From positions 563,946 to 627,945 of the forward strand of contig CAZKJL010000001.1 of NCBI GenBank assembly GCA_964553135.1: a stretch of 64,000 bases of DNA. Reading direction: 5' to 3'. A program made the translations under genes and the position numbers. Source of the DNA: an uncultured Candidatus Peribacteria bacterium. Its GTDB lineage: Bacteria > Patescibacteriota > Gracilibacteria > Peribacterales > Peribacteraceae. Below the pieces are notes generated by a model. The model was given only the letters and a program-made list of their open reading frames with translations. It was not told the DNA's origin and searched no databases. Below, one piece after another: positions 29,659 through 50,523 of the stretch (position 1 is its first letter; the number at the start of each line of letters is the position of its first letter).

Positions 29659-29734
29659 GTCACGGTAGCTCAGTTGGTAGAGCATGGGACTCATAAGCCC
29701 AGGGTCGCCGGTTCAATCCCGGCCCGTGACACCA
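29659..29734 (+). tRNA. tRNA-Met (anticodon CAU, elongator-type; Ile2/lysidine type not excluded), CCA encoded
   Basis: Acceptor GTCACGG/CCGTGAC, D arm GCTC-AGTTGGTA-GAGC, anticodon loop CTCATAA, T arm GCCGG-TTCAATC-CCGGC, ACCA. Confidence 0.85.
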
Positions 29735-31413
29735 TACAGGTCGCTAATGTTATGACGGCTATCAGACTTCTCTGACTCAGGAATCATAAGCTCCAGAGTC
29801 ACGTCTGAGCCGTCAATTACTATGCGCTTCACAAGGTCATGAATGATGAGGCGTTTTGTTTCAAAATCCAGCTTCGCCAATGCCTTAGCGTACTTTTTTG
29901 CTATGTCCTTTGCGGCAATCAGACGCTCTCTCCGCTCCTCTGCATCCATCAGTTGAGACGCTATCGCTTCCAGGTCATCTGTGAGCTTAATTTTATCCTC
30001 TGTAATGCGCTTAGATTCTACCTCCAGTTCTCCTTCACCCTGATAGTCAAAACCCTTCTGATAGAGGTTCTTCACCCTCTGCCATTCTGCGGTTAATGCA
30101 TCAAACTCTTGCTGCTTCTCTGCTCTTTCCTGCTCAAGCTCGTATACATTCACTTTCTTTTTCTCTTCTTCCTCAATGCGCTTAATGAATACCTTGGGGT
30201 CAGATAACAACTGGGATACCTCCTGCCACACCCTTCCTTCAAGGATAGAACCCGAAATCTCTTTGTTATCACAAGGCGTAGGACTCTTACTCTTATTGGC
30301 TTTGCGACAACGATATTGCGGTAATTCGCCTATCTTTGTTTTCACGCCATCAATCGTTTTAATTTGAGGCTTCATGTAGCCCCCATAAGTAGACATGCAC
30401 CTGGCGCAATCCACTTTTCCAGAAAGCAGATATGTGTGCCTTCCCAGTTTTTGGGTGCGCTTGTTCTGTTCCAGTAGAGATTGTGCCTTCTTCCATATCT
30501 TTTTGCTGATGATCTGTGGACAAGGTATTGGAATCCAATCTTCCTCAGGATTCAGAACCTCCTTCATTTTTTTGGCTACAGCATCGTATTTCTTAGTCTT
30601 CTTTCCATAGTAATACAGGCCTGTATAGGCCTCATTCCTAAGGAGGCGGCCAACTGTTTTGTCGTGCCAGTAATTAGCTGGATTCACTTTGCGAATCTCC
30701 TTCTTGAGTTTCTTCTTTTTTCTGAGCTTATCCGCAACGCGGTCTGCCTGGGTTGGAATCTGTAAGGCATTCAATCGCTGCTGAATCTCGTAGGTTGTTT
30801 TTCTGTCTCTCACGAACCACTTAAATATCTTCTGCACGATCTTAGAAGTTTCAGGATTGATAGCGATTTTTTGGGAGTCAGGGTCTATGTCATAGCCATA
30901 TGAGTGCATCCCACCCACCCATTTCTTGTCTTTAGCAGCCTCAACTCTGCCTATGGCTGTGCGTTCCATAATTAAGTCCCTCTCCATCTCTGCAATGATT
31001 CCCAGGAGTCCTAGCATGAACTTTCCAAAGGTCGTTGTGGTGTTCACTTCCTGCTGAGACGTAGCGATGAAATCTATGTCTATATCCCTTAAATCCTCAA
31101 TAGCATTGAGCAGATAGCGCGTTTTGCGGAAGAATCTATCCAGCTTCCACACTAAGACCACATCAAACTCCTTCTTCTTCGCGTCCTCAAACAAGCGCGG
31201 TAACTCTGCTCTCTCGTGAATCTCAGACGCTCCTGAGAAGCCATCATCTATGTAGATATATTTCTCATTAAACGTATAAAGTTCGTCGTTTGCTGCCAGC
31301 CACTTCCGCATTTGTGATATCTGGGAGTCCTTTCCGTACTTCTCTCCTTGCTCAGTAGTACTCACACGAACATACATGCAAGCACGTCTCTTTGTGTTGT
31401 CTTCTTTCTTCAT
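29713..31413 (-). CDS. Large serine recombinase
   Basis: Resolvase catalytic domain (MYVRVSTTEQ, VLVWKLDRFFR), recombinase domain, zinc ribbon (CARC...CRKAN) and C-terminal coiled coil. The stop codon lies inside the tRNA-Met T-loop. Confidence 0.9.
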   Translation of the reverse strand: MKKEDNTKRRACMYVRVSTTEQGEKYGKDSQISQMRKWLAANDELYTFNEKYIYIDDGFSGASEIHERAELPRLFEDAKKKEFDVVLVWKLDRFFRKTRYLLNAIEDLRDIDIDFIATSQQEVNTTTTFGKFMLGLLGIIAEMERDLIMERTAIGRVEAAKDKKWVGGMHSYGYDIDPDSQKIAINPETSKIVQKIFKWFVRDRKTTYEIQQRLNALQIPTQADRVADKLRKKKKLKKEIRKVNPANYWHDKTVGRLLRNEAYTGLYYYGKKTKKYDAVAKKMKEVLNPEEDWIPIPCPQIISKKIWKKAQSLLEQNKRTQKLGRHTYLLSGKVDCARCMSTYGGYMKPQIKTIDGVKTKIGELPQYRCRKANKSKSPTPCDNKEISGSILEGRVWQEVSQLLSDPKVFIKRIEEEEKKKVNVYELEQERAEKQQEFDALTAEWQRVKNLYQKGFDYQGEGELEVESKRITEDKIKLTDDLEAIASQLMDAEERRERLIAAKDIAKKYAKALAKLDFETKRLIIHDLVKRIVIDGSDVTLELMIPESEKSDSRHNISDLYGVTGRD

Positions 31414-31465
31414 AGAAAGGATTATGCTTCAACTTGTGGAATAGTGAAAAAGTTTTCTACAAACG

Positions 31466-31495
31466 TATGTCGCGTAAGGAACATTATGCGACATA
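31466..31495. promoter_or_regulatory. Inverted repeat (possible operator) in the divergent recombinase/J-protein intergenic region
   Basis: TATGTCGC-N14-GCGACATA. Confidence 0.3.
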
Positions 31496-31653
31496 GAGAT
31501 TTTTGAAAATAACACACTATCTCATATTGTCTACATGGCCACCACCCTCCCCCAGGTTTCCGCTCTCCTCCCATCACCCGTCTTAAGCCCCACCAAAAAC
31601 TCTCCAGAGTCTCATCCCTCTCTGTTTCTGAATAAATTCTGTATGATGGAGCG

Positions 31654-33441
31654 ATGTTGGGCATCTTCCGCGTACTCTTTGGCAAACAAACATCAGGCAA
31701 TTCCCTAGTTTCCCAGTCCCCAGCAAAGAGTAATTCAAAGGGAACTCCATTTATTGATATCACTAAGGCAAAAATAGTTGTGCTCCCCAGGCTGCCCACA
31801 GCCAATGAATATCAAAAAGAGGGCATCTCTCATCCTCAGGAATACTGGGAGAGCTACAACAAAGGACAATCGCTCTATGGCAGAGGATGGTACGAGAAAG
31901 CCAAGGTGGAGTTTCTAAAGATTTACGATAATGAGCATGGGAATGCGTACTTCAGCCATCTCCTGCGAACGTACAGGCAGGGCGCAGAACGGTTTATAGA
32001 GAAGAAGAAATACGAAGATGCTCTACGCGAATACACGGAAATGTTTATAAAATGCCCTAATACAACGAATACGGATGTAAGGAAGTACAATAAACTCATT
32101 GATGCGATGGGGGCAGATGTGAAGAAAAAGCAGCTTATTGAAGTGGAGAAAGAGGAACCTGAATTTGTCTGCGATGGAAAAGTGATTGCCTTCCTTTCGG
32201 AAGCGAAGAAGCCCAAAGGCTTTAAGATTGAATACGATAACGAACGGCTCTCCCAGTATGCCCTTCGCAACAAAAAGCAGACGCTCACACCGCTGCTTCC
32301 GTACATCGTAGTTGAAGGCAACACAGTGCAGTACGCGGATACGGTTGAGTTCCCAAAAACGAGCCGCAAGCTCTACAGAATAAAAACAATACCAACTCCC
32401 TCTACCCCCTTCATGTTCAGTACGGAGGACTTACAGATTTACCTCTCTGACTGGCAATTCAATGAGCTACAGCACTTGGATGCATCCAGGTACACATCAG
32501 AGAAATACCATCTTCGGTGCATTGATATGGCTGGCGATCTTTCCGCTTTTGTCTTCACCATCGTTGATGAATGCTACCTAGTGAATGAGAATTTTAAGGT
32601 ATTCGGCGTATGGAGAGTTCCCTACAAAATTGATACGCAAGATGCAAAATATAAGAGAGAAACAAGGAGCGGAAACAATGGCAATGCTCAGAATACTGAT
32701 GTGCGCGAGGCACTGAATACCTTGGGAATCTCCAAAGATCAGCCCACCACAGACGATGTGAAACAGGCTTTCAGGCAGTTAACGAAGCAATATCATCCTG
32801 ACAAATACAAAGGCGAGGATGCGGAAGAGCGCACGAAGGCGATCATTGGCGCGTATGAACTCATTAAGAATGCGGACTTGCAGGGTGTGAATGCAGCGGA
32901 CATGGAAGATGAGTACTGGATGGAGGTGACACACACCTCAACATTTAATGCACACGGCTTTGAATTCACACTGCAAATGGGAATGGTGGTAGACCCTTCA
33001 GACTGGATATATGGAACTGGAATGGCGAAGGATGGCTCTCGTATTTACCTGGGTTGTTACTCAGGAAAAGTGTATTCCATCAACACGGAGGGAGTTGCGG
33101 ATATGGTCTACGTTATCCCCAGCGCAGAGCCAATATCTGAGATAATGGAATGCGGCGAATACCTTCATATATCTACATACTCACAGGTCTACATTATTCA
33201 TATAGAAGAACAGCGATTCATTAAAGCCATTCAACTGCATGGAGAAGAAAACGGTGCATCAGGATACGTTAAATACTATGAGGATGGATTCGTTCATGTG
33301 CTGGGTGATGCAGTTACAATCCATGACTGCAAAGGCGAAAAGTTAGGTTCTGTGAGCTTCGCAAAGAGTCTAAAATCTATCTGCGTTGCAGACGGGAAAT
33401 TCGTCTTTGAAACAGCTAGCAAACTGTATTTGTTTGGATGA
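31654..33441 (+). CDS. J-domain (DnaJ-like) protein with TPR-like N-terminal region and beta-propeller-like C-terminal region
   Basis: Central J domain DDVKQAFRQLTKQYHPDKYKGEDAEERTKAIIGAYELIKN with the HPD motif. The C-terminal roughly 170 aa have repeated beta-strand units (GSRIYLGCYSGKVYSIN, YLHISTYSQVYIIH, GFVHVLGDAVTIHD, GKFVFETASKLYLF). Confidence 0.7.
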   Translation: MLGIFRVLFGKQTSGNSLVSQSPAKSNSKGTPFIDITKAKIVVLPRLPTANEYQKEGISHPQEYWESYNKGQSLYGRGWYEKAKVEFLKIYDNEHGNAYFSHLLRTYRQGAERFIEKKKYEDALREYTEMFIKCPNTTNTDVRKYNKLIDAMGADVKKKQLIEVEKEEPEFVCDGKVIAFLSEAKKPKGFKIEYDNERLSQYALRNKKQTLTPLLPYIVVEGNTVQYADTVEFPKTSRKLYRIKTIPTPSTPFMFSTEDLQIYLSDWQFNELQHLDASRYTSEKYHLRCIDMAGDLSAFVFTIVDECYLVNENFKVFGVWRVPYKIDTQDAKYKRETRSGNNGNAQNTDVREALNTLGISKDQPTTDDVKQAFRQLTKQYHPDKYKGEDAEERTKAIIGAYELIKNADLQGVNAADMEDEYWMEVTHTSTFNAHGFEFTLQMGMVVDPSDWIYGTGMAKDGSRIYLGCYSGKVYSINTEGVADMVYVIPSAEPISEIMECGEYLHISTYSQVYIIHIEEQRFIKAIQLHGEENGASGYVKYYEDGFVHVLGDAVTIHDCKGEKLGSVSFAKSLKSICVADGKFVFETASKLYLFG

Positions 33442-33447
33442 GATGTC

Positions 33448-34767
33448 TTATTGAATCTGAGCCTCTGGTGTCCCAGTAGGGAGGGTTTCGGTTGCCAGCT
33501 TCGGAGGAGCTATTAGCTCAGTGACCATCTCTGGTAATTCTGGAAGTTCAGGCAGAAGGTTGCCCATGTCTTTCACCTTTTCCAGTGAGCGCGTCACGCT
33601 CTTCTGTCCAAGCCATGACTTGCCCACAGCATCGTTCCACGACTTAGAGGCATACTCTAGCCCTTTGTGAACGCCAACGAGCCTTTGAACGAAGTTCTCC
33701 AAGCGTCTACCCAGTTCTTTCACTTCTACGGAAAGTGCCTGAGCTTGTGTTGCAATTCTGTGCTGCCGCCATGCGTCAGCAATGAGCCAAATGAGAGGCA
33801 TGAGCGTTGCAGGACTCGTTACAATGACTTTCTGTGCCGCACAGTCCTGTAGCAACTCCTGGTCACATTCAAGTGCTGCTCTCATAGCGGCCTCACTGGG
33901 AATGAAGATCACAACGTAAGGTACTGAATCAGGTACGAACTCTTTATATTCGCGTTTTGTTAAATCTTTCACGCGATCTCTGAGCTTCGTACAAAACTCT
34001 TTATGCAGTAGCTTGCGCTCTTCATCGGTCTTAGCGTTATCTGCCGCCAGATAACTCTCGTACAGGGAGGCCTTGGCATCAATGGCAAGGGAGCGGCTGC
34101 TATGAGGGAGTTTAATGATGCAGTCTGGACGCAAACGGCGTCCCTCATCATCCAGGGATGTTGTCTGAATTGTGTAATCCGTTCCTTCTCTCAGATCACT
34201 CATTTGCAAGATATTTCTCAGCACTAACTCTCCCCATCGTCCGCGTACTGCGCCGCTAGTCGTTAGAGCGGTTTTAAGATGCTGAGTCTCCTCTATCAGC
34301 TTCTGTTCCTGTGTGCTCAATCCCTCAATCTGTTTTTCTAGCTGCGCGTACTTCACTGTCCTATCTGTCTCAAACTGAGTGATCTTGTCATTCGCACTCT
34401 TTAGCTGATCTGTCAGACCCTTCACTATGGATTCAATGGCTTGTTTACTGAGTTCCATTTTTCCCTCTGCTGCCGTAGTGATCTGAGTGAGGTCTTTTTT
34501 GGCACTGGCCTCATACAGTTTAGCCTCCTGCTCTAAGACTGTGGATGCCACTGCTTTAAAAGTGGTCTCCAATTTCTTCTCTGTTAACTGCATATCCTGG
34601 ATACGCAGATCGTAGGCCGTCTTAAGGTTCGCGATCTCGCTTTGATGCTGTAGCTCCTTTTGTACCATCTGGCCTCTCAGGGTGGCTATCGCAGCGTTAC
34701 GCCAAAGAAACACACCTACGCCTCCCAGCAGTCCGCCTAGGCCAATGAATAGAAGGTTGGTGAGCAT
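33448..34767 (-). CDS. rmuC: DNA recombination protein RmuC
   Basis: N-terminal TM helix, long coiled coil, and RGRWGELVLRNIL...LRPDCIIKLP...LAIDAKASL, the RmuC nuclease-like core. Confidence 0.85.
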   Translation of the reverse strand: MLTNLLFIGLGGLLGGVGVFLWRNAAIATLRGQMVQKELQHQSEIANLKTAYDLRIQDMQLTEKKLETTFKAVASTVLEQEAKLYEASAKKDLTQITTAAEGKMELSKQAIESIVKGLTDQLKSANDKITQFETDRTVKYAQLEKQIEGLSTQEQKLIEETQHLKTALTTSGAVRGRWGELVLRNILQMSDLREGTDYTIQTTSLDDEGRRLRPDCIIKLPHSSRSLAIDAKASLYESYLAADNAKTDEERKLLHKEFCTKLRDRVKDLTKREYKEFVPDSVPYVVIFIPSEAAMRAALECDQELLQDCAAQKVIVTSPATLMPLIWLIADAWRQHRIATQAQALSVEVKELGRRLENFVQRLVGVHKGLEYASKSWNDAVGKSWLGQKSVTRSLEKVKDMGNLLPELPELPEMVTELIAPPKLATETLPTGTPEAQIQ

Positions 34768-34815
34768 TTACGAATGGGAGTGAGTCTACCTCTGGGAGCT
34801 ATTTCTTCCAATGGC

Positions 34816-35238
34816 TTAATGGTTACGCCAATAATCAGAGACTTTCCGTGACTGAGCGAAGAAAAACTTGAGCCGCCCATCTGCATCCTCTTCTTTGGGA
34901 ACAAGGTACCCCAATTGCTCTGCTAAATCGTAAAAACCGTCCCCAGGTCTCCATGCTTCTTGGTTGTACACGATGGAACTCATCAGGAAACGTTCATTTT
35001 CATCCGTAATCTTCTTTGCATACTCCTCTGTTAGCTCACCCAGCATGTGGCGAAGCGCGAAGGAGTTAGCGTTCAGATGGATATGAGGAAGCTGATCATG
35101 CAGTCGGTCAGATAACTCACTATAGCTAATGACCCCCTCTGGGCTTTTGGCAATCGCGATAAGAAGCAGTTCAATCTTCTTCTTAGTGGGTTCCCACTCC
35201 ACGTCATCTTTGCCCATGTCATTGCGTATTGGTTCCAT
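34816..35238 (-). CDS. Hypothetical protein upstream of rmuC
   Basis: ORF 48 nt upstream of rmuC on the same strand. Start set at MEPIRND (35238) to leave promoter space; the ORF extends to 35307. No family recognised. Confidence 0.45.
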   Translation of the reverse strand: MEPIRNDMGKDDVEWEPTKKKIELLLIAIAKSPEGVISYSELSDRLHDQLPHIHLNANSFALRHMLGELTEEYAKKITDENERFLMSSIVYNQEAWRPGDGFYDLAEQLGYLVPKEEDADGRLKFFFAQSRKVSDYWRNH

Positions 35239-35310
35239 ACGAGAAAAAGGAATTGCGGTAAAGTGGGCTAAAATATACAGTAAAGACGCTTTCTTTTCTA
35301 CGCGCATTTA

Positions 35311-36276
35311 GTGAAGTTTGGCTTCCGCACACCATCACTCAAAAAAAGATTCGCAGCCAGAACATCTGTGAAGCGATTCGTGCGGCACTCTATGGGATTG
35401 AAGGCTCCTAGAGGAATGGGGATGCTCACAAACCCCAAGAAAGCCCTCTACAACAAGGTCTACAGGAAGACGACTTTCGGCATTGAGGATGTACTAAAGA
35501 GCGGCAAACGCACTGCATCTAAAGCCTCTCATTCTTCCGCTCCTGTTTCCCTCAACTCTATGTCCAAGCCGCCAATGGGTGCTTCTCAGAAGAAGATTTT
35601 ATGGATTGGAATTATTGGAACAATCGTCCTGATCTTCACTGGAGTTGGCGTAGTACTCGCGCCTTTCTTCCTCATTGGAGTGGTCTACTACTGGAATAAA
35701 ACTCCTGAAGTCAGGATGAAGAAGGCACTGACGATGAGCAATTACCTCTATAAGAAAGGACAGATACAAGAATCTATTGATGCTCTTTTGCCTTTTAAGG
35801 ATGCCAAAAACTATGAGGTCTCTAGCCGCCTCGCACATCGGTACGGACAACTGGGAAACTATGCAGAGGCAGAGACGTATGGAAGTTTTTGCTACGAGCG
35901 GAACCCTCATGACCTGGAGAATTTATATGTGCATTCCATCACTCTCTTTAATTTGAAGAAGTACAAAGAGTCGCAAGCAGCACTCTCCATTCTCCCAGAT
36001 TCCGCGCAGACAGAACCCATATTCGCAAACATCATCGGTGCGAACTACAACGGCATGGGGCAGGAAGATATAGCTGTAGAAATTTATAAGAAGTGCCTTG
36101 GCAGAAAGCAGAACATTGATGGTGAAGAGATCAGCATAGCCATTAACCTGGCGAAGATTCTCATTGAGAAAAAGAAGAAGGCAGATGCCAAAAAGTTCCT
36201 TCTGAGAATCCTCGCAGTTAGCCCAATGCATGAGGAAGCAACGGAACTGTTGGCGAAGACAGAGAAAAACGATTAA
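35311..36276 (+). CDS. Membrane-anchored TPR-repeat protein with basic N-terminal motif
   Basis: GTG start. N-terminus KFGFRTPSLKKRFAARTSVKR...GMLTNPKKALYNKVYRKTTF, TM helix ILWIGIIGTIVLIFTGVGVVLAPFFLIGVVYY, then TPR-like repeats. Confidence 0.6.
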   Translation: MKFGFRTPSLKKRFAARTSVKRFVRHSMGLKAPRGMGMLTNPKKALYNKVYRKTTFGIEDVLKSGKRTASKASHSSAPVSLNSMSKPPMGASQKKILWIGIIGTIVLIFTGVGVVLAPFFLIGVVYYWNKTPEVRMKKALTMSNYLYKKGQIQESIDALLPFKDAKNYEVSSRLAHRYGQLGNYAEAETYGSFCYERNPHDLENLYVHSITLFNLKKYKESQAALSILPDSAQTEPIFANIIGANYNGMGQEDIAVEIYKKCLGRKQNIDGEEISIAINLAKILIEKKKKADAKKFLLRILAVSPMHEEATELLAKTEKND

Positions 36277-39200
36277 TCGCTTATACGAATCTTCTCCGTG
36301 TTCTTGCACTTAGGATATTTGCTACATCCAAAGAACACTCCATATCGTCCCTTCTTGGGCTTCATTGTGCCTCCACAGCCAGGTAGCGGACACTCGTAAT
36401 GCTGCAAGCTCGTGATATCTATGCTCTCAGTCTTCTGCTTCCGTAGGTTACGAGCATTCGTTTTTGCGCCGCATTCGCTGCATTCAAAATAGACACCGAA
36501 CTTCCCATTCTTCCAAACCGTCTCACCATTGCAATCATCACAGAGAGGATTTTCTTTCTCGTGAATGCTGATGCCCTTTCCTCCCGAAGGAGTACAAACG
36601 AGTTGGGCTATCTGGCTGCATGTCTTCTTCCCAGGGATTCTCAACATGCTTTCTGAGGAGTTTGTATGAGAGAGAATGTTGAGGGAGCCATGCCAGAGAA
36701 TGGAGCCATCAATCACGCAAATCTTTTCATGCATCTTGGAGCGCAGATCAACAGTTACGCCTGTATCTATAAGGGCTTGCACGGCAGGAGTGAGGCCATT
36801 AGCCATGATCTCCCCCAGTTCCTCAATGGGACGGAAAACAAGGCGTATCAACACTCCACGCCTCTGGGCATCCTTCAGGAGTTCTACCCACCTACTAAGG
36901 CCATTGAGCGTCACGAATGGTGAGAAGATCGTGATGGATTTCTCCGCCTTCTGGATGTCTTGGGTGAATGCAGGATAGAAACTGCCTTCATTGAAAGCCC
37001 CTGCACTATCCATATCCAGCTTGAGCTTTGTTTTCGTGAGACGGTCTAGAGCGTCATGCCAGTCCTGATCGCCAATGGGTAACAGTTCGCGCACATCCAG
37101 CGGAGAGCCGTGCTTCTCAAAGTATTTCAGGATGTTCAATACCAACATGCCTTCCTTGGCGGTTCTCCGTAGGAACTCAAAATTGGCCACGAGGATGATA
37201 TGTTCCTTGGCGCGGCTGAAAGCCACATTCAGCAGTCTTCCGCCTTCCTCCTCTCTCTGTGATGCTGAGAGGAACCGCCCCAAGCGCACACCCTCTGAGT
37301 CCGTGAGATCAACAATCATTGTCTCTTTCTCATTCCCTTGGAAACGGTGAACGGTAGAAGCAAATGTTGCTGGCCTTCCCAGCTTATCCTCTATGAGTGA
37401 AGCAATGAGCTTCGTTTGCGCCGCATACGGAGACACAATGCCTAGTGTTTTATTTTCCTCATCTGCCTGAGGTAAATATTTCTTTTTAGCGAAGAAAGAA
37501 ACGATGTTACGAATGAGGAGCGCATGGAACAGGTTGTAGCGCGAATACCCTCCCAGTTTCATGGAAGCCCACGGATGGAATGCGGACGTATCAACGTATA
37601 ACAAAGGCTCTTTGGAAAGGGGCATCTTGGAGACATTCTTCCCTACGCTCACATCTGGAATCAGAGGATGATCGTAGTAGAAATGTTCATTGATGCAGTC
37701 ACAGATGGCTTTCTTCATACGGAACTGAATCTGGAGCGCACAAAGGTACTCAGGAGGCTTCTTGGACTGCACTTTCTCAGGAATGCCAGCCATCTCAAAC
37801 ACGTCTTTCTTGAGCCATTCCAGAGCCTTTGGCTCATCAGACATGACAATGGGTGAAAGCTGTCTGAAGTCCCCAGCGATGACCACGGATTGCGTAGCAA
37901 GCCCAGAGGCGTAATACGTCATGGGAAGCATGACCATGGAGGCTTCATCCACGATCACCACATCAAACTCTCTATGCAGATGCGACTCTAAGAACGTCCT
38001 GTAGACGGTTGTAGCCAGGATGCGGCAGTTCTTGAGTACCTGTTCACGGACGGCTGCTAACTGGGTATCAATCTCCTTCACTTGGAGGTACAGATTCTCA
38101 ATCTGCTTCTCTGTAGTGGCAATGGAGGAAGGATACGATACAACGTTAGGATGCTCCTTGAGCTTCGCTTCAATATCCTTCGTCAGTGCCTCTAGCTCAT
38201 CTGCTTCCTTCCCTGCATTGGCAACAGCCTTATCAATCTCTGATGCTGCGTCCACTGAGGATTTCCGCATGATCTCCGCTTGGCTCATCTCTCGCATGAT
38301 CTTTTCTGGATGCAAACCCAGCACCATGCGCTTGAGGGAGCCAGCGTTCTTCGCTCGTGCCAACTTCTCCTCCAAGGAGTCCTTTTTAGTCTGATACTGA
38401 GATATCTTTGCCGCCAACCCAGAGCGTTTCTGCTGATGGGCTTGGAGGGTCTTTGCGGAGAATTCCATCTTCTTTTCCGCATCCTTCAGTGCCTGATGGA
38501 AGCGGATGGCTTCTTGCATCGGCTGTATCTGTCCCTCTAGGTGTGAGATTTCCAGTACGAGCTTCTGCCTTTCCCCCTGTAGTCCTTCACTCAGGCGTTC
38601 CACGATCTCATCAATGAGCACTTGTTTGCCATGCTTCTCAATCAGTTCCACCTTCATGGCTGGCCCCAAGCGGATGACTGAGCCGCGTTGATACTCCTCA
38701 TCTGTCACTAAGCGCTCAGCGACTTTTTCCAGAGCAGTATCCACGGCAATGTTCGTATTGGATACGAGTAGCACGGAAAGCCCTTTGCGATAGAAGCCTT
38801 CTACGACTCGTGCCAGCGTTGTGGTCTTCCCTGTTCCTGGCGGCCCCCAGACATAGGTAACTTCACTGCCAAGAGAACGGCGGATGATTCTCTGCTTCTC
38901 CTCATTCATGCCGCCAAGCAGCGTCTCATCTAGCTCAGCATCAGCAGAGGCTATATTTCCTTCTCCAATGACCTTCTCAGCGAGTCCAGCGTTAAAAGCT
39001 GCCTCTCCGCTCTGCACTTCACCCAGACGCTCCTTGAGGCGTTCTAGAAGGAACGAGTTATCAATGATGATTCGCGCACTGGAGATCGTGTCTCCAAGAT
39101 CAGCCTCCAATGCCACGATCAATACGCCCTCATTCGTAGAAACGATGATGCCTGGGATATCATCTTTCCCACAGGCAAGGCGTATGGGTGAATCATCTTT

Positions 39201-39374: not shown

Positions 39375-39381
39375 AGTTAAT

Positions 39382-42900: not shown

Positions 42901-43006
42901 AAAAAGCCAAACGTAGCGAAAACTCACACTATCGCTTGACTTTCTGTTTAGGTAGTTTGCACATAGATACTATCCATATAGAAAGGAGTCTGATAAATTA
43001 ACTTCC

Positions 43007-43408: not shown

Positions 43409-43428
43409 GTCATTCCTTTCCTTTGCAT

Positions 43429-44586
43429 ATGGCTCCCAAGCCCAACATCCATAAACGTATCGCGCTCAGTTTTGGCGGATTCTTCCTGCTGCTTATGGCC
43501 TCCACTTCGTTTCTAGGTGCAGCAGAGCCAGTGATCACGGTTCCTCCAACTCAAGTCTATGCCAAAGGGAATCTTACCCTCACAGGCAGCATCACAGCGG
43601 ATTGCTTCTGCACAGTTAAGGCAACGCTGAGACTCGTGGAGGATTCAGGCAAGCCCTATGACCCCAAGGTAGTGGATGCAGCACTAGAGTTGAATGAGCA
43701 TGGGCAGTTCACCCATACTCTGTCTCTCGTAAACGATGAAAAGGATTCTGCCATCGGCATCACAGCAGAAGTCTCCCCTCGCTTCTGGTTCGGCTCACAG
43801 AAGACGGGCAAGGCATCAATCACTGTGAAGCCTCAGGAGACACCTATAGAGCTTGTAGACGCTCCTACGGAGTGGAAGGACAGAGAGATCATATTCACGC
43901 TCAAGCTGCTCTCAGGCTCCTCCGTAGACCTTAAGGGAGGACTGGCCACAGTACTAAGCAGTGAGCAGTATCCCTTCAAAGCAGAGTGGGCAGATATTCC
44001 AGGTTCCACGGATAGCAGGAAATTGGTGACGCTCAAAGGAGCGTTTGATACCGACTACAATCAGGAGTTTGAGGGGTTCAAGTTCACTGTGAAGGCGAAG
44101 GGCTACAAGACGCATGAAGAGACGATCAGGGTGAATAACCAGAACTACGATGCCAAGAGGGTTGCGGCGGACAAAGAGGCAAGCCAGAGAGAAATGAAGC
44201 TCCTGACGATGGAGCAGTTCAACTACGGTGACGATATCCAGGTTGCAGTGAGTAGGAACATCCCTAAGAGCAGAACCGTGGGATACAGGTACGTCCTCAA
44301 TCCTGATACATCTCACTTCATCCGCATTCTTGTGAGTGTAAAGAATGCCAGCTTGGGAGAAATCCATGTGAACCCCAACTACATCACGCTCAGAGACAGC
44401 ACTGGCTACACCTACAACCCTGATGAGGCTACCTACGGCCTCAACTATCTGGATGCCATTGATCTCCAGCCAGGCGGCGCAACCTCAGGTTGGCTGGCCT
44501 TCATCGTTCCCAAAGATGAGAAGGAACTGACGCTGATCTACAGCAGCTTTGATGGGACGATAACGAAGAAAATCTATGTGCAATGA
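43429..44586 (+). CDS. Secreted protein with C-terminal DUF4352-like Ig-fold domain
   Basis: Signal peptide. C-terminus ILVSVKNASLGEIHVNPNYITLRDSTGYTYNP...PGGATSGWLAFIVPKDEKELTLIY matches the DUF4352 pattern. Confidence 0.6.
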   Translation: MAPKPNIHKRIALSFGGFFLLLMASTSFLGAAEPVITVPPTQVYAKGNLTLTGSITADCFCTVKATLRLVEDSGKPYDPKVVDAALELNEHGQFTHTLSLVNDEKDSAIGITAEVSPRFWFGSQKTGKASITVKPQETPIELVDAPTEWKDREIIFTLKLLSGSSVDLKGGLATVLSSEQYPFKAEWADIPGSTDSRKLVTLKGAFDTDYNQEFEGFKFTVKAKGYKTHEETIRVNNQNYDAKRVAADKEASQREMKLLTMEQFNYGDDIQVAVSRNIPKSRTVGYRYVLNPDTSHFIRILVSVKNASLGEIHVNPNYITLRDSTGYTYNPDEATYGLNYLDAIDLQPGGATSGWLAFIVPKDEKELTLIYSSFDGTITKKIYVQ

Positions 44587-44864
44587 CCCTACCCCTCCCC
44601 CCACTTCTTTTAGGTTACGTCCTCACAAAGTGGCTTTAGCCCCTCGCGTAGAAAACTGAGCCTCAATGTCTCTCTGTAGACGGCAAATCCAGAGAAACAC
44701 ATAGACGATTTACGCATCAAGACACAGGGCGTATCCGTATCATTGTCAATTTTCGTTGTGCTGATGAGAAGCTGTTTTCGGCTAGAATATGAGTAAACCC
44801 TAAGAGGCGTAGCTGCTTAAGTACATTGTCAACTTACTGCGCTCTCCTTCGTTCCAAGAGGAAT

Positions 44865-45596
44865 ATGTATCAGTTAGAACTACAGCATGAAGACCAAAAA
44901 AGTGACTTACAGAAGCCACGATCTAATACTTTAAGCAAAAATAAATCAAGGATGAGGAAGGACATAGAAGAGCGTATTGGAAAGAGGTGGAGAGAAGTGG
45001 AGGACGATCTTAACAGTCGCATTCAGAACATGACGGAGCGTAGACACTGGCTCATCCGCTCCAGCCCTCAGATGCTTGCGGTTGCAGAGATGATATTGGC
45101 GCAAGAGAAACCCATGAAGATTGTGAGATTTCTACGCATGAAAGATACTCAAAGGTTTGGAGCCAACATCAGCGATGATGCTCTGCTACGACAAGTACTG
45201 CGATTTAAAGAGGAAGTAGTTTCCGCGTTGGAGAATGAAGAAGGGGATGATATTTCTATGAGCCGATTAGATTTCTACGCACGACTGTCAGGGAAGCATG
45301 TTGATATACACGCCATGATGACCAAGTTGATTCTTTTCCAAGAATCCAGACTCTGTATGGTTCTAGAAAAGGAAAATGAATGCACTCATGCCTGGATGAG
45401 AAATAAAGTAGACGGGAAGGCTGAGAAGAGGATGCAAAAAGCATGGAAAGAAGGCGGCAAAGAGCTTGATCTATACTGGAAACTTCTTATGTCCTTGGCT
45501 CTGTATGAAGCAATGAGTGGACGCATGAATCAGGAAGAACACGCGCATCTTCACCAAATCATCCGCACGAACAGAGAGTATTTTCCGCGAAGGTAA
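44865..45596 (+). CDS. Hypothetical protein (element-encoded)
   Basis: Long ORF in the forward gene block of the element. Start at ATG 44865 (a TTG at 44826 is possible). No family recognised. Confidence 0.45.
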   Translation: MYQLELQHEDQKSDLQKPRSNTLSKNKSRMRKDIEERIGKRWREVEDDLNSRIQNMTERRHWLIRSSPQMLAVAEMILAQEKPMKIVRFLRMKDTQRFGANISDDALLRQVLRFKEEVVSALENEEGDDISMSRLDFYARLSGKHVDIHAMMTKLILFQESRLCMVLEKENECTHAWMRNKVDGKAEKRMQKAWKEGGKELDLYWKLLMSLALYEAMSGRMNQEEHAHLHQIIRTNREYFPRR

Positions 45597-45638
45597 TTCA
45601 CTACAATGTGAAGGAGGTAGCAACCGATCTGATGACCT

Positions 45639-46574
45639 ATGGCGAAACTTATCCCACTCCCATCTGAGGAATTTAAGAAGCTGTCCCCCAGAGACAGGGT
45701 GGAAGCAAAGCTGTTGCTTTATAGGAAGCCAACACAGGAAGTCATACAGTATATCCGCAAGACATATGGGATGGAAAAGCCCACGGCTCTACCATCGTTA
45801 GATCGTGATGGTCTTTGTAGATATGCGAGACAATTGGTAGACGAATGGGGAGGAGCATTCTTCTCATCAGCAGACAGTGCCTTAGATATTGATTGGCTAA
45901 GCAACTACTGGATTCACTTCGTGTGCATTTTTGCAAAGCATCATGTGCTTCTACCACCTGATGATCTGGAAGAATTTACTGATGAGGAGGCTTACGCTTC
46001 CCTGGAAAAAGACAGGGCTGATAGATGGGCATGGGAAGGCAAATGCAGAGCAAGGCCAAACTATGATGATGAGAGATTTGATATAGAGGAATTCACAGAG
46101 ATGAAGGAGGAGGCACTAGAGGAACAATATGAACTGGCAAAAAAGAGTTTTGAGATTGCTAAGAAACGCCATAGCGATAAACAGATTATGGAAAGTGAGG
46201 ACTATTCGCCCTTTGATGACCGCATCGTATATAGCTCCCCCAGAGTTACGGTGAGCATGAGGCTTAATAAGGTGAAGGTACATCTCAATTCCAGGGCTAC
46301 GAAAGAGGACATGCTTAAAGCCTGGCATCATGTGGAGAGATGTCAGAGGATGATTAAGAGTGGTAAGGGAAAGGCAGCCAAGCACGATGAAGAGCTATTG
46401 GATATCTACAATGAGATTGCCGCATTGATGAGTGAGTGCGAGAAGGAGGGGCTGAGCAGTACGGCCACCGCAAAGAAGATTAATGATGAGCTAAACAACA
46501 TCCAAAAGCTCAAGTACTACAAGATCGGGTCTATGAGTAAGGTCATGCAGCGCGTCCGTACCTTGGAGTTTTAG
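45639..46574 (+). CDS. Hypothetical protein (element-encoded)
   Basis: 311-aa acidic ORF. No family recognised. Confidence 0.45.
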   Translation: MAKLIPLPSEEFKKLSPRDRVEAKLLLYRKPTQEVIQYIRKTYGMEKPTALPSLDRDGLCRYARQLVDEWGGAFFSSADSALDIDWLSNYWIHFVCIFAKHHVLLPPDDLEEFTDEEAYASLEKDRADRWAWEGKCRARPNYDDERFDIEEFTEMKEEALEEQYELAKKSFEIAKKRHSDKQIMESEDYSPFDDRIVYSSPRVTVSMRLNKVKVHLNSRATKEDMLKAWHHVERCQRMIKSGKGKAAKHDEELLDIYNEIAALMSECEKEGLSSTATAKKINDELNNIQKLKYYKIGSMSKVMQRVRTLEF

Positions 46575-46635
46575 GCCGCATAACCAGTACCGTTAAGTGT
46601 CACCGTTTTGATGACGTTTTTTTATAAGGTCTCTC

Positions 46636-46896
46636 GTGCTGACCAAGCATGTGATGACCAATCTGAAGAAGAAGCAACGGCAGTCTGCCCTATCCGCCTC
46701 TGAGATCAGGTGGAAGGTCGTCTATGCAGAGGCCTCAAAGGAATCTGAGAGGCTTCTTGATGATGTGGTAAGCAGAATTTACAGGTTTGGGATTCAGCAA
46801 AAACTCTTTGTGGAGAATGCCGATTGCACCGAAGCCCCCAAAGTCATGACCGTAACGGCAGCGATGCCTGAGGCCGTTCCTGCTTTGTCTTATTAA
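46636..46896 (+). CDS. Hypothetical protein (element-encoded)
   Basis: 86-aa ORF on the same strand as the block. Confidence 0.35.
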   Translation: MLTKHVMTNLKKKQRQSALSASEIRWKVVYAEASKESERLLDDVVSRIYRFGIQQKLFVENADCTEAPKVMTVTAAMPEAVPALSY

Positions 46897-46914
46897 TTTC
46901 CTTACTACTTTCTT

Positions 46915-47241
46915 ATGCATACCTTGATTTCCTTCTTTCCTTTCCAGCGGATAGAAGGCGAAGAAGAACTCTATCCGCGCTCCATACTAGGAACTAAGGC
47001 CAAGATTTTTCAGACCGATGATGGGTACGAAGTCCATGTTGTCTTGGCAGACGACAGAGTGGCGGATACAGGAGTACATCGCCCCTGCGAAACATATGAA
47101 GAGGCGGTTGCGTTGGCAGACGGAGTGATACGAGGCATGTCACTTGGCTACTTAGCAGGGGCATTGCAGTGGGAGGAGGACGGCGGACAACTAGATAACA
47201 ACGAGGAAGAGACCGAAACCAATTCCCCCTACGCATCATGA
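46915..47241 (+). CDS. Hypothetical protein (element-encoded)
   Basis: 108-aa ORF whose stop overlaps the next start (ATGA). Confidence 0.45.
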   Translation: MHTLISFFPFQRIEGEEELYPRSILGTKAKIFQTDDGYEVHVVLADDRVADTGVHRPCETYEEAVALADGVIRGMSLGYLAGALQWEEDGGQLDNNEEETETNSPYAS

Positions 47242-47504
47242 GCATATCCGAAATCCAGATAGTGCCTGTGAAGCCACAGGATGGCCTTATAGCGTTTGTA
47301 AGCTGTGTGTTGGATGGTGGTTACTTCATAGGCTCCATAGCCGTGCATACGAAGCTAGGAGGCGGCTACCGTCTCGTGTATCCCACTAAGCTGCTTGGAG
47401 ACAGACAATTGCACTACCACCATCCCATCACCAGGGAGATGGGTAAGCAGATTGAGGAAGCCATTATTCCTGTGGTGGAAAGAATGTTCTCTACTCACTC
47501 ATGA
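47238..47504 (+). CDS. SpoVG-like nucleic-acid-binding protein
   Basis: ISEIQIVPVKPQDGLIAFVSCVLDGGYFIGSIAVHT...YRLVYPTK...HHPITREMGKQIEEAI follows the SpoVG fold pattern. Confidence 0.55.
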   Translation: MSISEIQIVPVKPQDGLIAFVSCVLDGGYFIGSIAVHTKLGGGYRLVYPTKLLGDRQLHYHHPITREMGKQIEEAIIPVVERMFSTHS

Positions 47505-47830
47505 GTTATCTATTTCTTATTCATCGTGCGGACGCTCTTCTCTCTTCTGCCGTTGTTGCTACTACATGTGTCCAACTGGGTCAGTGTTTTGGCATCCGTG
47601 AGAGCAAAGTGATTGCAACACTGAGACGGTTTCAGTTCCGTGCGCGGCTTTGGCTTTCTAGAGCGAAGGTTGATGGCGGCACTGAGATAGCTTTCAAGAA
47701 TGACCAGCTTTGGCTTACCCAAGCCAGAGTTAGTCTTTGGCGAGAGATAGGCTCTTGGGATTGTGTGAACAGCATATCTGGAAGCCGCATCTGGGAAGCA
47801 TCGCACGTCCTTTCATCGCCAGTCCTATGA
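47501..47830 (+). CDS. Hypothetical protein, possible HTH
   Basis: Translationally coupled on both sides by ATGA overlaps. The LGQCFGIRESKVIATLRRF segment is HTH-like. Confidence 0.4.
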   Translation: MSYLFLIHRADALLSSAVVATTCVQLGQCFGIRESKVIATLRRFQFRARLWLSRAKVDGGTEIAFKNDQLWLTQARVSLWREIGSWDCVNSISGSRIWEASHVLSSPVL

Positions 47831-49059
47831 GTGACTATTCAGAACAGAACAGGCTTAACGCAGAGCGCATCTACAACACGCTCTCAGCCATGAAGTGTAA
47901 TCCTAGGAGAGCAGGAGGGTTCCAATGCTCGTCTCATTGCCCCTTCCATGAAGACGATAAGCCCTCTCTATCACTGGATATGCGGCAAGGAGTGTTCTAC
48001 TGCCACTCATGCCAGTCAGGTGGCACGGTGTGGGACTTTGAAGCCCTGCTTGGCAGCACGTCATACAGTTCCTTTGTGAAGGGGGGCGACCCTAGGAAGG
48101 GAAAGCAGCGCAAGAATGATAACCAAAGACTCGTGAGGGCTTTACAGCGGTACAACGAGATCGAGCCGCTGCCAGCGGACAAGGCAGAAGTTCTTAGATG
48201 CCATGATGATACAATCAGGTATTGGCATGACTGCTTATTGTCTTCAAAGGAGGCGCGGCGCATGGTCACTGGCAAATATGAAGAGGCGTTCGTCCGCAGC
48301 TACTACCACTGGCAGACGAAAGAGAGGATAACCACGCCTCATAACTATGTTAGCCCCAGATTCACCTTGGAGACCGTGCGCCAATTCAGGATAGGGTATG
48401 CCCCTAAGTCGTCTATAGAGCTAACCAATATGCTGAGAGCGAAGTACTCAGAAGAAGTCATTATAGGAACAGGACTCGTGAGAAGACACGGCGGCTCAGG
48501 ACTGATTGCCTCCTTTGCTGGGCGCATTATTTATCCATACCTTCTCCAAGGTAAGCCTTGCTATGCGATAGCCAGGATTACACCCGATTCGCCAACGAAC
48601 CTTTCAGACTGCAAATACCTGAAACAAAAAACGCGAGATAGAAAATACAGCTTCCCTCTGCGTAATCCTCCTCTTTTCAATCAGGATGCCATATGGACAC
48701 ACCAAAAAATTCTGATTACGGAGGGGGTTACAGATGCGATCAAGGCATGTGAGGCAGGAGTGTCAGCTATATCACCCGTCACTATCGCCTTCATAAACAA
48801 GCATCTTGATCTCATAGCTCACATGCTATTGGGAAAAGATGTGGTCATCTGCAATGACAATGAAGAGAACGGCGCAGGAGAGAAGGGCATGAGACACATG
48901 GAAGAGCAACTTAAAAAGCGAGGTGTGGACGTGCGTTGCATGACCTTGCCCAGAAAGGCAGGGCAACCGAAGGTGGATGTATGTTCATTCATCAATGACC
49001 AAGGAGCGGAAGCCTTTCTAGCCGAAATAAAGTCTCAGACTGGCATCGTTTTCCCTTAG
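47827..49059 (+). CDS. DNA primase (CHC2 zinc finger plus TOPRIM, DnaG-like)
   Basis: CPFHEDDKPSLSL...FYCHSCQSGG zinc finger. TOPRIM motifs ILITEGVTDAIKA and VVICNDNEENGAGEKG. Confidence 0.8.
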   Translation: MSDYSEQNRLNAERIYNTLSAMKCNPRRAGGFQCSSHCPFHEDDKPSLSLDMRQGVFYCHSCQSGGTVWDFEALLGSTSYSSFVKGGDPRKGKQRKNDNQRLVRALQRYNEIEPLPADKAEVLRCHDDTIRYWHDCLLSSKEARRMVTGKYEEAFVRSYYHWQTKERITTPHNYVSPRFTLETVRQFRIGYAPKSSIELTNMLRAKYSEEVIIGTGLVRRHGGSGLIASFAGRIIYPYLLQGKPCYAIARITPDSPTNLSDCKYLKQKTRDRKYSFPLRNPPLFNQDAIWTHQKILITEGVTDAIKACEAGVSAISPVTIAFINKHLDLIAHMLLGKDVVICNDNEENGAGEKGMRHMEEQLKKRGVDVRCMTLPRKAGQPKVDVCSFINDQGAEAFLAEIKSQTGIVFP

Positions 49060-49289
49060 TCTTTGGCCTTAAGTTTCTTGTTGCCCACTCTCTTATCCGT
49101 CTTTGCCAGCAGTGCGCGAGTCTTCTTAAGCGCGGCAACATCGCTCTCAAAGAATATCTTTCCAGAGGCGGTCTGTTGGTACGGCAACTCACCAGCGTTG
49201 GCGATGTTATCTACCTGCTGAGGTGTTATCCCCAGGAATTTAGCGGCATCCAGACGAGCCATGACCCGTTCTCTCATTTGCTGATTCAT
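49056..49289 (-). CDS. Excisionase-family HTH protein (putative Xis/regulator)
   Basis: LDAAKFLGITPQQVDNIANAGELPY...GKIFFESDV is HTH_17-like. Adjacent and divergent to the integrase. Confidence 0.6.
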   Translation of the reverse strand: MNQQMRERVMARLDAAKFLGITPQQVDNIANAGELPYQQTASGKIFFESDVAALKKTRALLAKTDKRVGNKKLKAKD

Positions 49290-49393
49290 GGCCTATATCA
49301 TACCAAAGCCAGTCTCCCAAGGAAGGCAATATTTGTCTATTAGGTCAACATTATATACTTGTCTATTAGACAAACATATACTATGCTTAGCTC

Positions 49394-50323
49394 ATGGAAA
49401 TCACCACCTCACGTTCACTCACGGCAGTCCCAAAACAGATTCACTCCGCCTACATCCAGGCATTTATTAAGAACCAGAACACCTTCAACACGCGAAGGGA
49501 TTACAAGCAGGAGGTGAACCTGTTCTATCGCTCTGTGGGGAAAAACATGGAGCAAGTAACTCTGCATGACCTGATCTCATACAAAGAACAGTTAGAGAGC
49601 AGAGGCCTTAAGCCAGCAAGCATTGCCAAGAAGCTGACCGTGCTGAGGAGGCTCTTCACATTTTTCTATGAGCAGGGAGTGCTGCCCACCAACCCAAGTG
49701 CTGGCTTGAAGCTCCCTAAAGTAAAAAATGAAACCACGCGCACGATTCTCTCTCTCGCTGAGTGTAACCGTCTGCTTTCCAGCATTGGCGCATCCACAGT
49801 CATGGGCCTAAGAGACCGAGCGATCTTGGCACTCCTCTGCATTAATGCGCTCAGGATTTGCGAGATATCTAGAGCTAATGTGGGAGATATAATCCAGAAC
49901 GATGGATGTGTAGCGCTTAGGGTGCATGGAAAGGGCGGACGCGAGGATGAGACGCGCCTGAGAGAAGACGTGCTGAATGCCATCAATGCCTATCTGAATG
50001 CGAGAGGAGAAGTGAAGGCTGATGAGCCATTATTCGTAGGCTCAACGCATAGAAAGGGTGAAAGAATCTCAACGCGAACCATCCAGCACTTCGTGAAGAA
50101 ATACATGAAGAAGATAGGTATTAACAGGCCTACGGTGGTAACGCACTCGCTGCGCCATTCAGCAATTTCCGCTCTCATAGAAGCAGGAGTGTCCCTGTTG
50201 GATACACAAACCTTCGCACGGCACTCCTCAAGCGTTGTAACCCAGCGGTATATCCATCAGAAAGACAAGATGAAGAACCATGCGGTACTCAGAAATCCTA
50301 TAACAATGCTGCCCCTGGAATAG
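49394..50323 (+). CDS. Tyrosine recombinase/integrase (XerC/D-like)
   Basis: N-terminal SAM-like domain. Catalytic contexts ALRICEIS (R), HGKGGRE, HSLRHSAIS (HxxR), and RHSSSVVTQRYIH (catalytic Y). Confidence 0.9.
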   Translation: MEITTSRSLTAVPKQIHSAYIQAFIKNQNTFNTRRDYKQEVNLFYRSVGKNMEQVTLHDLISYKEQLESRGLKPASIAKKLTVLRRLFTFFYEQGVLPTNPSAGLKLPKVKNETTRTILSLAECNRLLSSIGASTVMGLRDRAILALLCINALRICEISRANVGDIIQNDGCVALRVHGKGGREDETRLREDVLNAINAYLNARGEVKADEPLFVGSTHRKGERISTRTIQHFVKKYMKKIGINRPTVVTHSLRHSAISALIEAGVSLLDTQTFARHSSSVVTQRYIHQKDKMKNHAVLRNPITMLPLE

Positions 50324-50523
50324 CACCTGAAACCATCTGTAATTGAATGCGTTCTTGCTTCGTTAGTTCCCTTACATAAGCCACTTTCCAGTTAATCAGT
50401 ATCAGGTAATAATATTGGCGACCCGTGCTACCATTCAACTTCGCTTCGCGAAGTCTCATGGCAAGCCATCGAGGTTCAACTTGTCCTGAACGGAGTGAAG
50501 GATCCCGGCCCGTGATACCGCTC

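Follow-up and report, generated by a model that had tools for sequence, protein, structure and literature searches.

Which of two recombinases inserted a genomic island that carries a large serine recombinase (LSR) against its left attachment site and a tyrosine recombinase close to its right one? We address this for an island of ~20.8 kb at a tRNA-Met gene within 64,000 nucleotides of an uncultured Candidatus Peribacteria contig (CAZKJL010000001.1, positions 563,946 to 627,945; hereafter the window, in whose coordinates all positions are given). Our answer, to which we assign a probability of roughly 0.7, is a plasmid-like island inserted at tRNA-Met by its LSR, with the attachment site of the excised circle (attP) inside the LSR gene and a XerD-like tyrosine recombinase as an accessory. 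A first-pass annotation, made from the sequence, had described the same arrangement, with the LSR directly against attL and a tyrosine integrase and Xis-like gene at attR, and Pfam and the layout of open reading frames (ORFs) bear it out; the same annotation took the repeat that bounds the island for the footprint of the tyrosine enzyme, which is the point on which we differ. Close LSR homologues in GTDB genomes sit in metagenome-assembled genomes of Candidatus Peribacteria or Peregrinibacteria, which makes the host a bacterium of the candidate phyla radiation (CPR) with a small genome.

The target of the insertion, on the attL side, is the 3' end of tRNA-Met (anticodon CAT; 29659-29734, + strand), one of five tRNA genes in the window, which is recognized by ARAGORN and by Rfam (RF00005, 66.8 bits) and folds into an intact cloverleaf; the Rfam scan of the window returned no RNA family besides tRNAs. 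The 14-mer ATCCCGGCCCGTGA occurs twice in the 64 kb, at 29716 and 50502, even when up to two mismatches are allowed, and extends to ATCCCGGCCCGTGA[C/T]ACC, with 17 of 18 positions identical between the copies. The left copy (ATCCCGGCCCGTGACACC, 29716-29733, + strand) lies inside the tRNA gene, where it takes in the final 3 nt of the T-loop, the 3' strand of the T-stem, the 3' acceptor strand, the discriminator and CC, with the probable crossover at the discriminator/CC end, while the right copy (ATCCCGGCCCGTGATACC, 50502-50519, + strand) forms the outer boundary of attR. The derivation of these 18-bp repeats from the T-arm and acceptor 3' end, already proposed in the first-pass annotation, is thus upheld by ARAGORN, Rfam and the repeat search. 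GC content steps from 0.57-0.60 to 0.44-0.50 exactly at the end of tRNA-Met; beyond the right repeat it is still ~0.50 over ~1.2 kb, which take in a flavodoxin gene and a 200-aa ORF. With its intact tRNA, 3'-end repeat, integrase at the edge and deviant composition, the locus qualifies as a tRNA-integrated genomic island.

The LSR itself (566 aa, or 554 aa from Met13; 29713-31413, - strand) has the full domain set of its class: a Resolvase catalytic domain (PF00239, 114 bits), a Recombinase domain (PF07508) and a zinc ribbon (Zn_ribbon_recom, PF13408), with a match of 349 bits to the phrog_95 integrase family. Its catalytic motif YVRVSTTEQ is intact, with S18 as the serine; R16, Q22, D92, R93 and R96 are invariant in alignment A1, which comprises 23 LSR homologues at 39-65% identity, and the protein aligns to catalytic-domain structures of LSR and TP901-1. 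The coiled coil that is embedded in the zinc-ribbon domain of LSRs is represented in the AlphaFold2 (AF2) model of a homologue, P0014, by long helices at 425-515 between beta elements.

What ties this enzyme to the tRNA is the end of its gene. The LSR stop codon lies inside tRNA-Met, 3 nt to the left of the repeat, and the last seven codons, GVTGRD*, are the antisense translation of the tRNA acceptor and T arm. Most of the homologues in A1 end in YG[AV]TG[RQ]D or a close variant, again the antisense translation of a tRNA 3' end, and wherever DNA was at hand the close homologues lie tail-to-tail with, and overlap, a tRNA gene on the opposite strand: tRNA-Met in L011/L017, L014 and L191, tRNA-Gln in L101, and tRNA-Leu in L194 and L019, with contigs L190, L192 and L193 ending within tRNA antisense sequence. 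The int gene both abuts and overlaps attL in all relatives. Furthermore, one relative isolates the LSR from the tyrosine enzyme: L011, whose LSR is 62% identical, also occupies a tRNA-Met site and has a 12-bp repeat (CCCGTGGCACCA) at both ends, with no tyrosine recombinase. The clade-wide overlap, together with this LSR-only element bearing the same kind of repeat, identifies the LSR, and not the tyrosine enzyme, as the tRNA integrase, and we conclude that the island was most likely inserted into tRNA-Met by its LSR.

Repeat lengths in the clade fit this assignment. L026 has a 10-bp repeat and the other relatives have no repeat of at least 10 bp, as expected of an enzyme that needs only dinucleotide identity; among the compared elements the blocks of att identity span 10-18 bp. 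Across the att copies that we compared (attL and both right-hand cores of the window, attL and attR of L011, and the attP of P0014), ACC at the tRNA 3' end is the sole block common to all, which suggests a crossover at the discriminator/CCA. The 18-bp repeat of the window reflects the need to regenerate the tRNA 3' end, together with similarity between attP and attB half-sites.

The association reaches well past the close relatives. Among distant LSRs, a tail-to-tail tRNA overlap was found in ~27 of 80 loci, from Parcubacteria, Dojkabacteria, Saccharibacteria, Actinomycetota, Bacteroidota and Myxococcota. Overlaps of 7-116 nt were seen in L046, L052, L064, L067, L068, L072, L075, L076, L078-L080, L083, L086, L090, L091 and L096, loci that come from Actinomycetota, Bacteroidota, Myxococcota and Saccharibacteria. 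Among phage LSRs in IMG/VR the overlap was found in 0 of 40, many of these proviruses being trimmed at the LSR stop; the best IMG/VR match to the island's LSR reaches 28% identity, and none of the relatives there is informative. A Logan contig carrying the LSR (L001, equivalent to 29702-32925 of the window) ends at 29702, within the tRNA, and at 32925, within the J-domain gene; shared k-mers lead one to expect the former break, which speaks neither for nor against an alternative junction.

The second part of our reading concerns the far end of the island. When the two repeat copies are joined, as they would be in an excised circle, the LSR ORF of the window gains 67 codons, to a read-through form of 633 aa, and that of L011 gains 22. 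In the window the added frame (50298-50501, - strand) contains a conserved C-terminal peptide of ~30 aa (hereafter CTP; ...GSTGRQYYYLILINWKVAYVRELTKQERI...), which lies just inside attR in the direction and frame of the LSR; the region can also be read as a free-standing ORF of 53 aa (50298-50459). The shared part of the read-through peptide is GSTGRQYYYLILINWKVAYVRELTKQER in the window and GATGCQLSYLVLVSWKVGCIRQMSKKDR in L011, and 13 of 28 positions are identical between the two tails, five of them with different synonymous codons, while most of the replacements are conservative. A phmmer search with the window's extension against 1.84 billion representative proteins returned three small ORFs (P0200-P0202, E-values 2e-6 to 2e-5) that share, after a variable N-terminus, the motif G-x-T-G/C-x-Q-x-YY[VI]IL[IV]xWK[VM]A[YC]VRE[ML]TKxERI (alignment A2).

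In one case the peptide is found where the joined frame would place it. P0014, an LSR of 599 aa from L018 (contig CAIJNU010000060.1), ends in an in-frame fusion to the CTP, and no tRNA is present at its locus; it is 81-83% identical to P0012 and P0013, both of which end in the tRNA-type tail. The AF2 model of P0014 (mean predicted local distance difference test score, pLDDT, of 80) has a confident LSR body of canonical form, closed by a beta-hairpin at 531-547, then a disordered segment at 552-572 that is encoded by the att-core region, and the CTP as a strand (573-580) followed by a helix (581-598) at pLDDT ~65. Six sequences in all carry the evidence for the CTP architecture, namely P0014 with its fusion, the window, L011 and P0200-P0202. 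Read most simply, they place attP inside the LSR ORF, in the stretch that encodes the disordered linker; with a crossover at the discriminator/CCA, integration would therefore split the LSR gene.

Integration would then exchange the CTP for the tail read antisense from the tRNA, so that the integrated LSR ends in GVTGRD* and the CTP segment stays behind at attR; only the excised circle would encode the full LSR-linker-CTP protein. The element supplies a copy of the tRNA 3' end, so that the tRNA stays intact and a short direct repeat is left. The exchange of C-termini may also bias the LSR, toward integration when the element is excised and toward stability or an altered directionality when it is integrated. 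The circle would probably replicate through the SpoVG-like protein and DnaG-type primase described below, and the XerD-like recombinase, with its HTH_17 (helix-turn-helix) partner and their putative operator, could resolve circle multimers or provide a second route of integration or excision.

A stronger version of this idea holds that the LSR gene is built around its own att site, so that the swap acts as a switch of directionality or stability without a conventional recombination directionality factor (RDF), with the tyrosine recombinase carrying out the complementary reaction (excision or circle resolution) in a two-recombinase system that has so far been met in CPR bacteria. Different enzymes, or an enzyme and a free peptide, would then be made in the two states of the element, excised and integrated. 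We regard such a switch as unlikely in this full form.

The right-hand boundary is less simple than a single repeat. An inner, degenerate core resembling a tRNA 3' end (GACCCGTGCTACCA, 50420-50433, + strand) directly abuts the CTP and is the positional homologue of the att core in L011, P0200-P0202 and P0014; it lies 82 bp inside the outer 18-bp repeat, with 68 bp between the two cores. It is also what came of the suggestion in the first-pass annotation to look for a third internal copy of the repeat: none exists in the window at up to two mismatches, and this degenerate core was found instead. The intervening 81 nt align weakly to the inner core together with the CTP start (score 42 against 29 +/- 4.6 for shuffled sequences, with 8 of 500 shuffles reaching it), a weak statistical hint that the outer unit may duplicate these two parts. 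The 8-mer TTCAACTT is present twice, at 50435 and at 50475. Two readings suggest themselves. Either the outer repeat is the current attR, accompanied by a diverged duplication of the core and CTP start, or attR is now the inner core, and the outer repeat is what an earlier member of the family left behind. The predicted empty-site junctions are tRNA ...GGTTCAATCCCGGCCCGTGAYACC + GCTCTTATTCTACTGG (attB-a) and tRNA ...CCCGTGACACCA + TTCAACTTCGCTTCGCG (attB-b), and the circle junctions would read ...GGAGTGAAGGATCCCGGCCCGTGAYACC + ATACAGGTCGCTAATG (attP-a) and ...TATTGGCGACCCGTGCTACC + ATACAGGTCGC (attP-b).

Several observations weigh against the LSR-centred account that we prefer. The CTP abuts the inner core and not the 18-bp repeat, and the LSR frame, although open across the intervening 81 nt, could be so by chance (p ~0.09). 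An identity of 18 bp is more than an LSR requires and is what tyrosine integrases typically show. No CTP motif was found at the distal ends of L014, L101 and L019, whose boundaries are undefined or lie outside the DNA examined. Eight loci compared around their tyrosine recombinase genes showed no robust dif-like or shared recombination site, and the contigs examined included neither an empty site nor a circular junction or other excised form of the island. Finally, the chromosomal context of P0014 is not accounted for by a simple model: in L018 the unsplit gene (10001-11800) has no tRNA nearby and sits next to host-like peptidoglycan genes, with the contig ending 376 bp later. L018 may represent a tandem junction, a different route of insertion or a chimeric assembly.

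That only integrated copies are seen bears on a further explanation, in which the island is a fixed, immobile remnant with relic recombinases, and the repeat and open frame are leftovers. Wherever the LSR, tyrosine recombinase or flavodoxin is matched identically, in Logan assemblies of SRR142713xx or in an NCBI contig of 874 kb, the contigs belong to the same strain, are 100% identical and are occupied, so that several metagenome samples give the same integrated form; the attR is compound and partly degenerate, and transfer machinery is not recognizable. However, the large ORFs are all open, both recombinases keep their catalytic residues, the GC content of the island is still far from that of its host, and the repeat copies differ at a single position, all of which leave us to consider a remnant quite unlikely. 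Other routes to an unoccupied or related locus gave little: a scan of JGI metagenomes anchored on the DUF218 gene of the left flank yielded seven homologous loci, none with an adjacent tRNA-Met and none syntenic, and IMG/VR contained no close relative.

The tyrosine recombinase (309 aa; 49394-50323, + strand; PF00589, PF02899) ends 178 bp from the right repeat and keeps the catalytic residues of its class: an alignment to XerD (1a0p) shows R, K, H-x-x-R, H and Y in place. It consists of a SAM-like N-domain and the catalytic domain, with no arm-binding domain. It does not pass as a XerC/XerD equivalog (TIGR02225, 139 bits against a cut-off of 330), nor as a heterobivalent integrase of the lambda or P4 type, since it has no arm-binding domain and its position relative to the att sites varies. 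Homologues form ~70 clusters at 50-62% identity, and those with a source name come from Peribacteria or Peregrinibacteria; the contexts examined are all mobile-element-like, including an LSR-less island, L097. Two subtypes can be told apart, A at 56-59% and B at 41-44% identity to the window enzyme, with B directly upstream of the LSR.

Within the LSR clade the pairing of the two enzymes is recurrent. A serine and a tyrosine recombinase occur together in seven of eleven related elements (the window, L014, L101, L190, L191, L192/193 and L194), small elements of 7-9 kb among them. The tyrosine recombinase gene is immediately upstream of and co-directional with the LSR gene in L014, L190, L191 and L194, ~2 kb upstream of it in L192, and at the far end of the element in the window and L101. 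We therefore assign the tyrosine recombinase the putative role of a frequent accessory partner of the LSR, most plausibly in multimer resolution of the replicating circle, with a second integration or excision route as the alternatives. In the subtype B loci L014, L190 and L191 an 11-mer, AC[TC]GCTATTAC, directly follows the tyrosine recombinase stop codon and precedes the LSR; it could be a site or a merely conserved gene-end sequence.

A small HTH_17/Xis-like protein (49056-49289, - strand; Pfam, PHROGs) is the divergent partner of the tyrosine recombinase, and this divergent pair is kept in the window, L097 and L101. The spacer between the two genes harbors two copies of a near-palindromic motif, TTGTCTATTAG and TTGTCTATTAGACAA (49329-49377); TTGTCTATTAG has three matches against 0.4 expected, all of them in this spacer, and the motif pair recurs at the same place in L097 (7930-7985). 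The pair probably serves the HTH_17 regulator as its operator. When the island was scanned from end to end for inverted and direct repeats that might mark sites around either recombinase module, this pair alone stood out from chance-level pairs. In L097 the 1.26-kb unit of HTH_17 and tyrosine recombinase genes is flanked by 22-nt direct repeats (7677-7698 and 8937-8958; 19 of 22 positions identical, ...TTCTTTGTCTTGA) and may be a small mobile cassette. L097 adjoins the 3' end of tRNA-Pro, and no island boundaries could be defined there, the tRNA-Pro 3' end matching over 8 nt only.

Could this tyrosine recombinase, with its Xis-like HTH protein, nonetheless have made the tRNA-Met insertion and its 18-bp repeat, leaving the LSR as a passenger or as an enzyme of resolution or inversion? 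A 17/18 repeat of a tRNA 3' end is the kind of footprint that tyrosine integrases typically leave, the enzyme is intact and near the right repeat beside an HTH_17 protein, and homologues occur in LSR-less islands such as L097, beside the tRNA-Pro 3' end. Against this, LSR-only relatives at tRNA-Met carry the same kind of repeat, the LSR gene overlaps the tRNA throughout the clade whichever tRNA it is, four relatives have the tyrosine recombinase immediately upstream of the LSR and so at neither att end, and the enzyme is XerD-like and devoid of an arm-binding domain. We consider this explanation improbable, and with it the first-pass interpretation of the repeat gives way to insertion by the LSR. 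The other suggestion of that annotation, two elements in tandem (in the form considered here, LSR and defence genes at 29.7-42.9 kb; tyrosine recombinase and replication genes at 43.0-50.5 kb, the latter owning the repeat), would suit the divergent HTH_17/operon junction at 42.9-43.0 kb, a right-hand block inverted relative to its orientation in L014, a compound attR that hints at more than one integration event and a tyrosine recombinase family broader than the LSR clade, but it has little to recommend it when the seven co-occurrences and the lack of an att-like copy between the halves make a chance fusion unlikely, elements of 7-9 kb are too small to be two, the far end, past the tyrosine recombinase gene, is where the CTP is encoded in the LSR's frame, and the SpoVG-like replication module occurs in the LSR-only elements L011 and the P0012 contig and therefore belongs with the LSR. 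Local alignment of the tRNA 3' end to 42.5-43.1 kb, to the region upstream of the LSR and to the right flank likewise gave nothing above 8-9 nt.

Returning to the LSR element with its accessory recombinase, its gene content suggests a small, probably replicative unit. The replication block described in the first-pass annotation is present, with a DnaG-type primase (CHC2 zinc finger, catalytic core and Toprim; 47737-49059, + strand; Pfam, PHROGs, TIGR01391 at 100 bits) and a SpoVG-like ORF (47238-47504, + strand) that scores 25 bits, below the Pfam cut-off, and whose homologues in related elements match PF04026 (61-65% identity in L011 and L194). The replicase beside the SpoVG-like ORF varies: the DnaG-type primase in the window, Rep_O in L011, and PriCT/AAA_25 in L101, L194 and the P0012 contig. 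The two genes are preceded or accompanied by a block of small ORFs (43007-47830, + strand) encoding proteins of 133 aa, a DUF4352 surface-type protein (43423-44586, + strand; Pfam), 256, 311, 86 and 108 aa, the SpoVG-like protein and 109 aa. Neither Pfam nor PHROGs matched a virion protein in this block; the 311-aa orphan has no homologues, and its single-sequence AF2 prediction (pLDDT 42) gave no usable model. Divergent from the block is a second HTH_17 regulator of the MerR/excisionase type (42688-42927, - strand; Pfam), with homologues detected by tblastn in L014, L101, L097, L191 and L194.

Also in line with the first-pass annotation, searches of the island with Pfam, PHROGs and NCBIfam found no capsid, portal, large terminase, relaxase or type IV secretion system (T4SS), and several ORFs had no match at all; "terminase small subunit" matches were weak and came from HTH_17 proteins only. 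The island is thus without structural or satellite hallmark genes that would mark a prophage or satellite, a novel structural gene among the orphan ORFs being possible, and without relaxase, coupling protein, T4SS or FtsK-type translocase domains in any ORF that would mark an integrative and conjugative or mobilizable element.

The cargo lies between the LSR and the second regulator. It comprises a J (DnaJ)-domain protein of 595 aa (31654-33441, + strand; Pfam, NCBIfam), an RmuC-family protein (33448-34767, - strand; PF02646, 245 bits; PADLOC RTasRmuC, 162 bits) with a 163-aa ORF upstream on the same strand (34816-35307, - strand), and a protein of tetratricopeptide repeats (35311-36276, + strand; Pfam). 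Next come, by their order probably one operon (36273-42616, - strand), a 381-aa ORF without an assigned family (41471-42616, - strand), a Sel1-repeat and trypsin-like protease of 701 aa (39382-41487, - strand; Pfam, NCBIfam) and a 1033-aa protein (36273-39374, - strand; Pfam) that joins a superfamily 1 (SF1) helicase (AAA_11/AAA_12) to a phospholipase D-type (PLD) nuclease (PLDc_2) and a Top1-type zinc ribbon. PADLOC matches the 1033-aa protein to MkoA (205 bits) and MkoC (136 bits), the best MkoC stretch covering model positions 813-1112 of 1136 with the N-terminal part unmatched. The combination of an SF1 helicase and a PLD nuclease in one protein is that of Mokosh type II, which makes this a candidate Mokosh (MkoA/MkoC)-like defence protein on the strength of its domains. 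Like the single helicase-PLD protein of Mokosh type II, it unites an Upf1-like SF1 helicase with a PLD nuclease; unlike it, it adds a C-terminal Top1-type zinc ribbon, leaves the N-terminus of the model unmatched and stands in an operon-like array with a protease and the 381-aa protein. To our knowledge, a protease partner is not part of the described Mokosh systems. Relatives carry methyltransferase/ResIII/SMC-type genes or a RelA_SpoT protein as cargo, and the family looks like one of small, integrative, probably replicative elements that carry defence genes.

The flanks hold two further observations. Outside attR, the flavodoxin gene and 200-aa ORF (50524-51750) have a GC content of ~0.50 against 0.57-0.60 in the host and are without homologues in the flanks of related loci; an older insertion at tRNA-Met may have left this stretch as a remnant, and no further tRNA-like repeat was found to its right. 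In addition, host genes that lie 5' of tRNA-Met in L014, L191 and the P0012 contig (p116, p196, GrpE and a Mur ligase) lie beyond attR in the window, while the abhydrolase on the left flank of the window matches the far-side flank of the relatives (compared over 27125-29734 and 53122-59362). The unit of tRNA and island thus seems to lie in the opposite orientation to that in related genomes.

The chief tools for large DNA insertion are serine integrases, whose natural targets are usually protein-coding or intergenic. Both kinds of behavior proposed here, LSR integration into tRNA genes and an integrase with attP in its own gene, are already known from other systems. Integration of LSRs into tRNA genes has been documented but called rare, with mycobacterial AICEs (the integrative and conjugative elements of actinomycetes) at tRNA-Leu and phage phiRSM at tRNA-Ser as examples (PMC3218068). 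Given the loci assembled above, LSR targeting of tRNA genes seems far commoner than "rare" implies. The island resembles these elements in that a serine recombinase targets the tRNA 3' end and, as in AICEs, in being a small integrative and replicative unit without virion genes; it differs in its CPR host, in having no FtsK/Tra gene, in the overlap of the LSR ORF with the tRNA and in the added tyrosine recombinase, and the phiRSM enzyme is a small resolvase-type recombinase and not an LSR.

An att site inside the cognate integrase gene, with exchange of the C-terminus, has been described for the tyrosine integrase Int of Mx8, whose integrated form is reported to be less active, and for the LSRs of integrative and conjugative elements in streptococcal rumA (PMC4701971); mycobacteriophage BPs, in which attP lies in the repressor gene and immunity depends on integration, offers a conceptual parallel (PMC4557955). 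As in Mx8 and the rumA elements, integration here would exchange the 3' end of the gene and give two C-termini for two states, whereas the partner is a tRNA read antisense and the displaced part is a short peptide of strand and helix. With classical tRNA islands and prophages of P4- or lambda-type tyrosine integrases (Williams 2002, as cited in PMC3218068, PMC4701971), the island shares the intact tRNA, the far repeat of its 3' end, the deviant GC content and the accessory and defence cargo, but it has a serine recombinase by the tRNA and a XerD-like enzyme that lacks an arm-binding domain and is not consistently at an att site.

For the biology of these bacteria, the island leads to a sizeable clade of LSRs that target tRNA and tmRNA 3' ends in CPR bacteria and, at greater distance, in several further phyla, and whose att sites are predictable because the integrase ORF reads into the tRNA. 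It shows a recurrent pairing of serine and tyrosine recombinases, and it represents an apparently replicative, defence-carrying integrative element in a CPR genome of ~1 Mb, a setting in which mobile elements are poorly characterized. If it is true that the C-terminal swap alters the activity of the LSR, the family would possess a simple control of directionality without a separate RDF.

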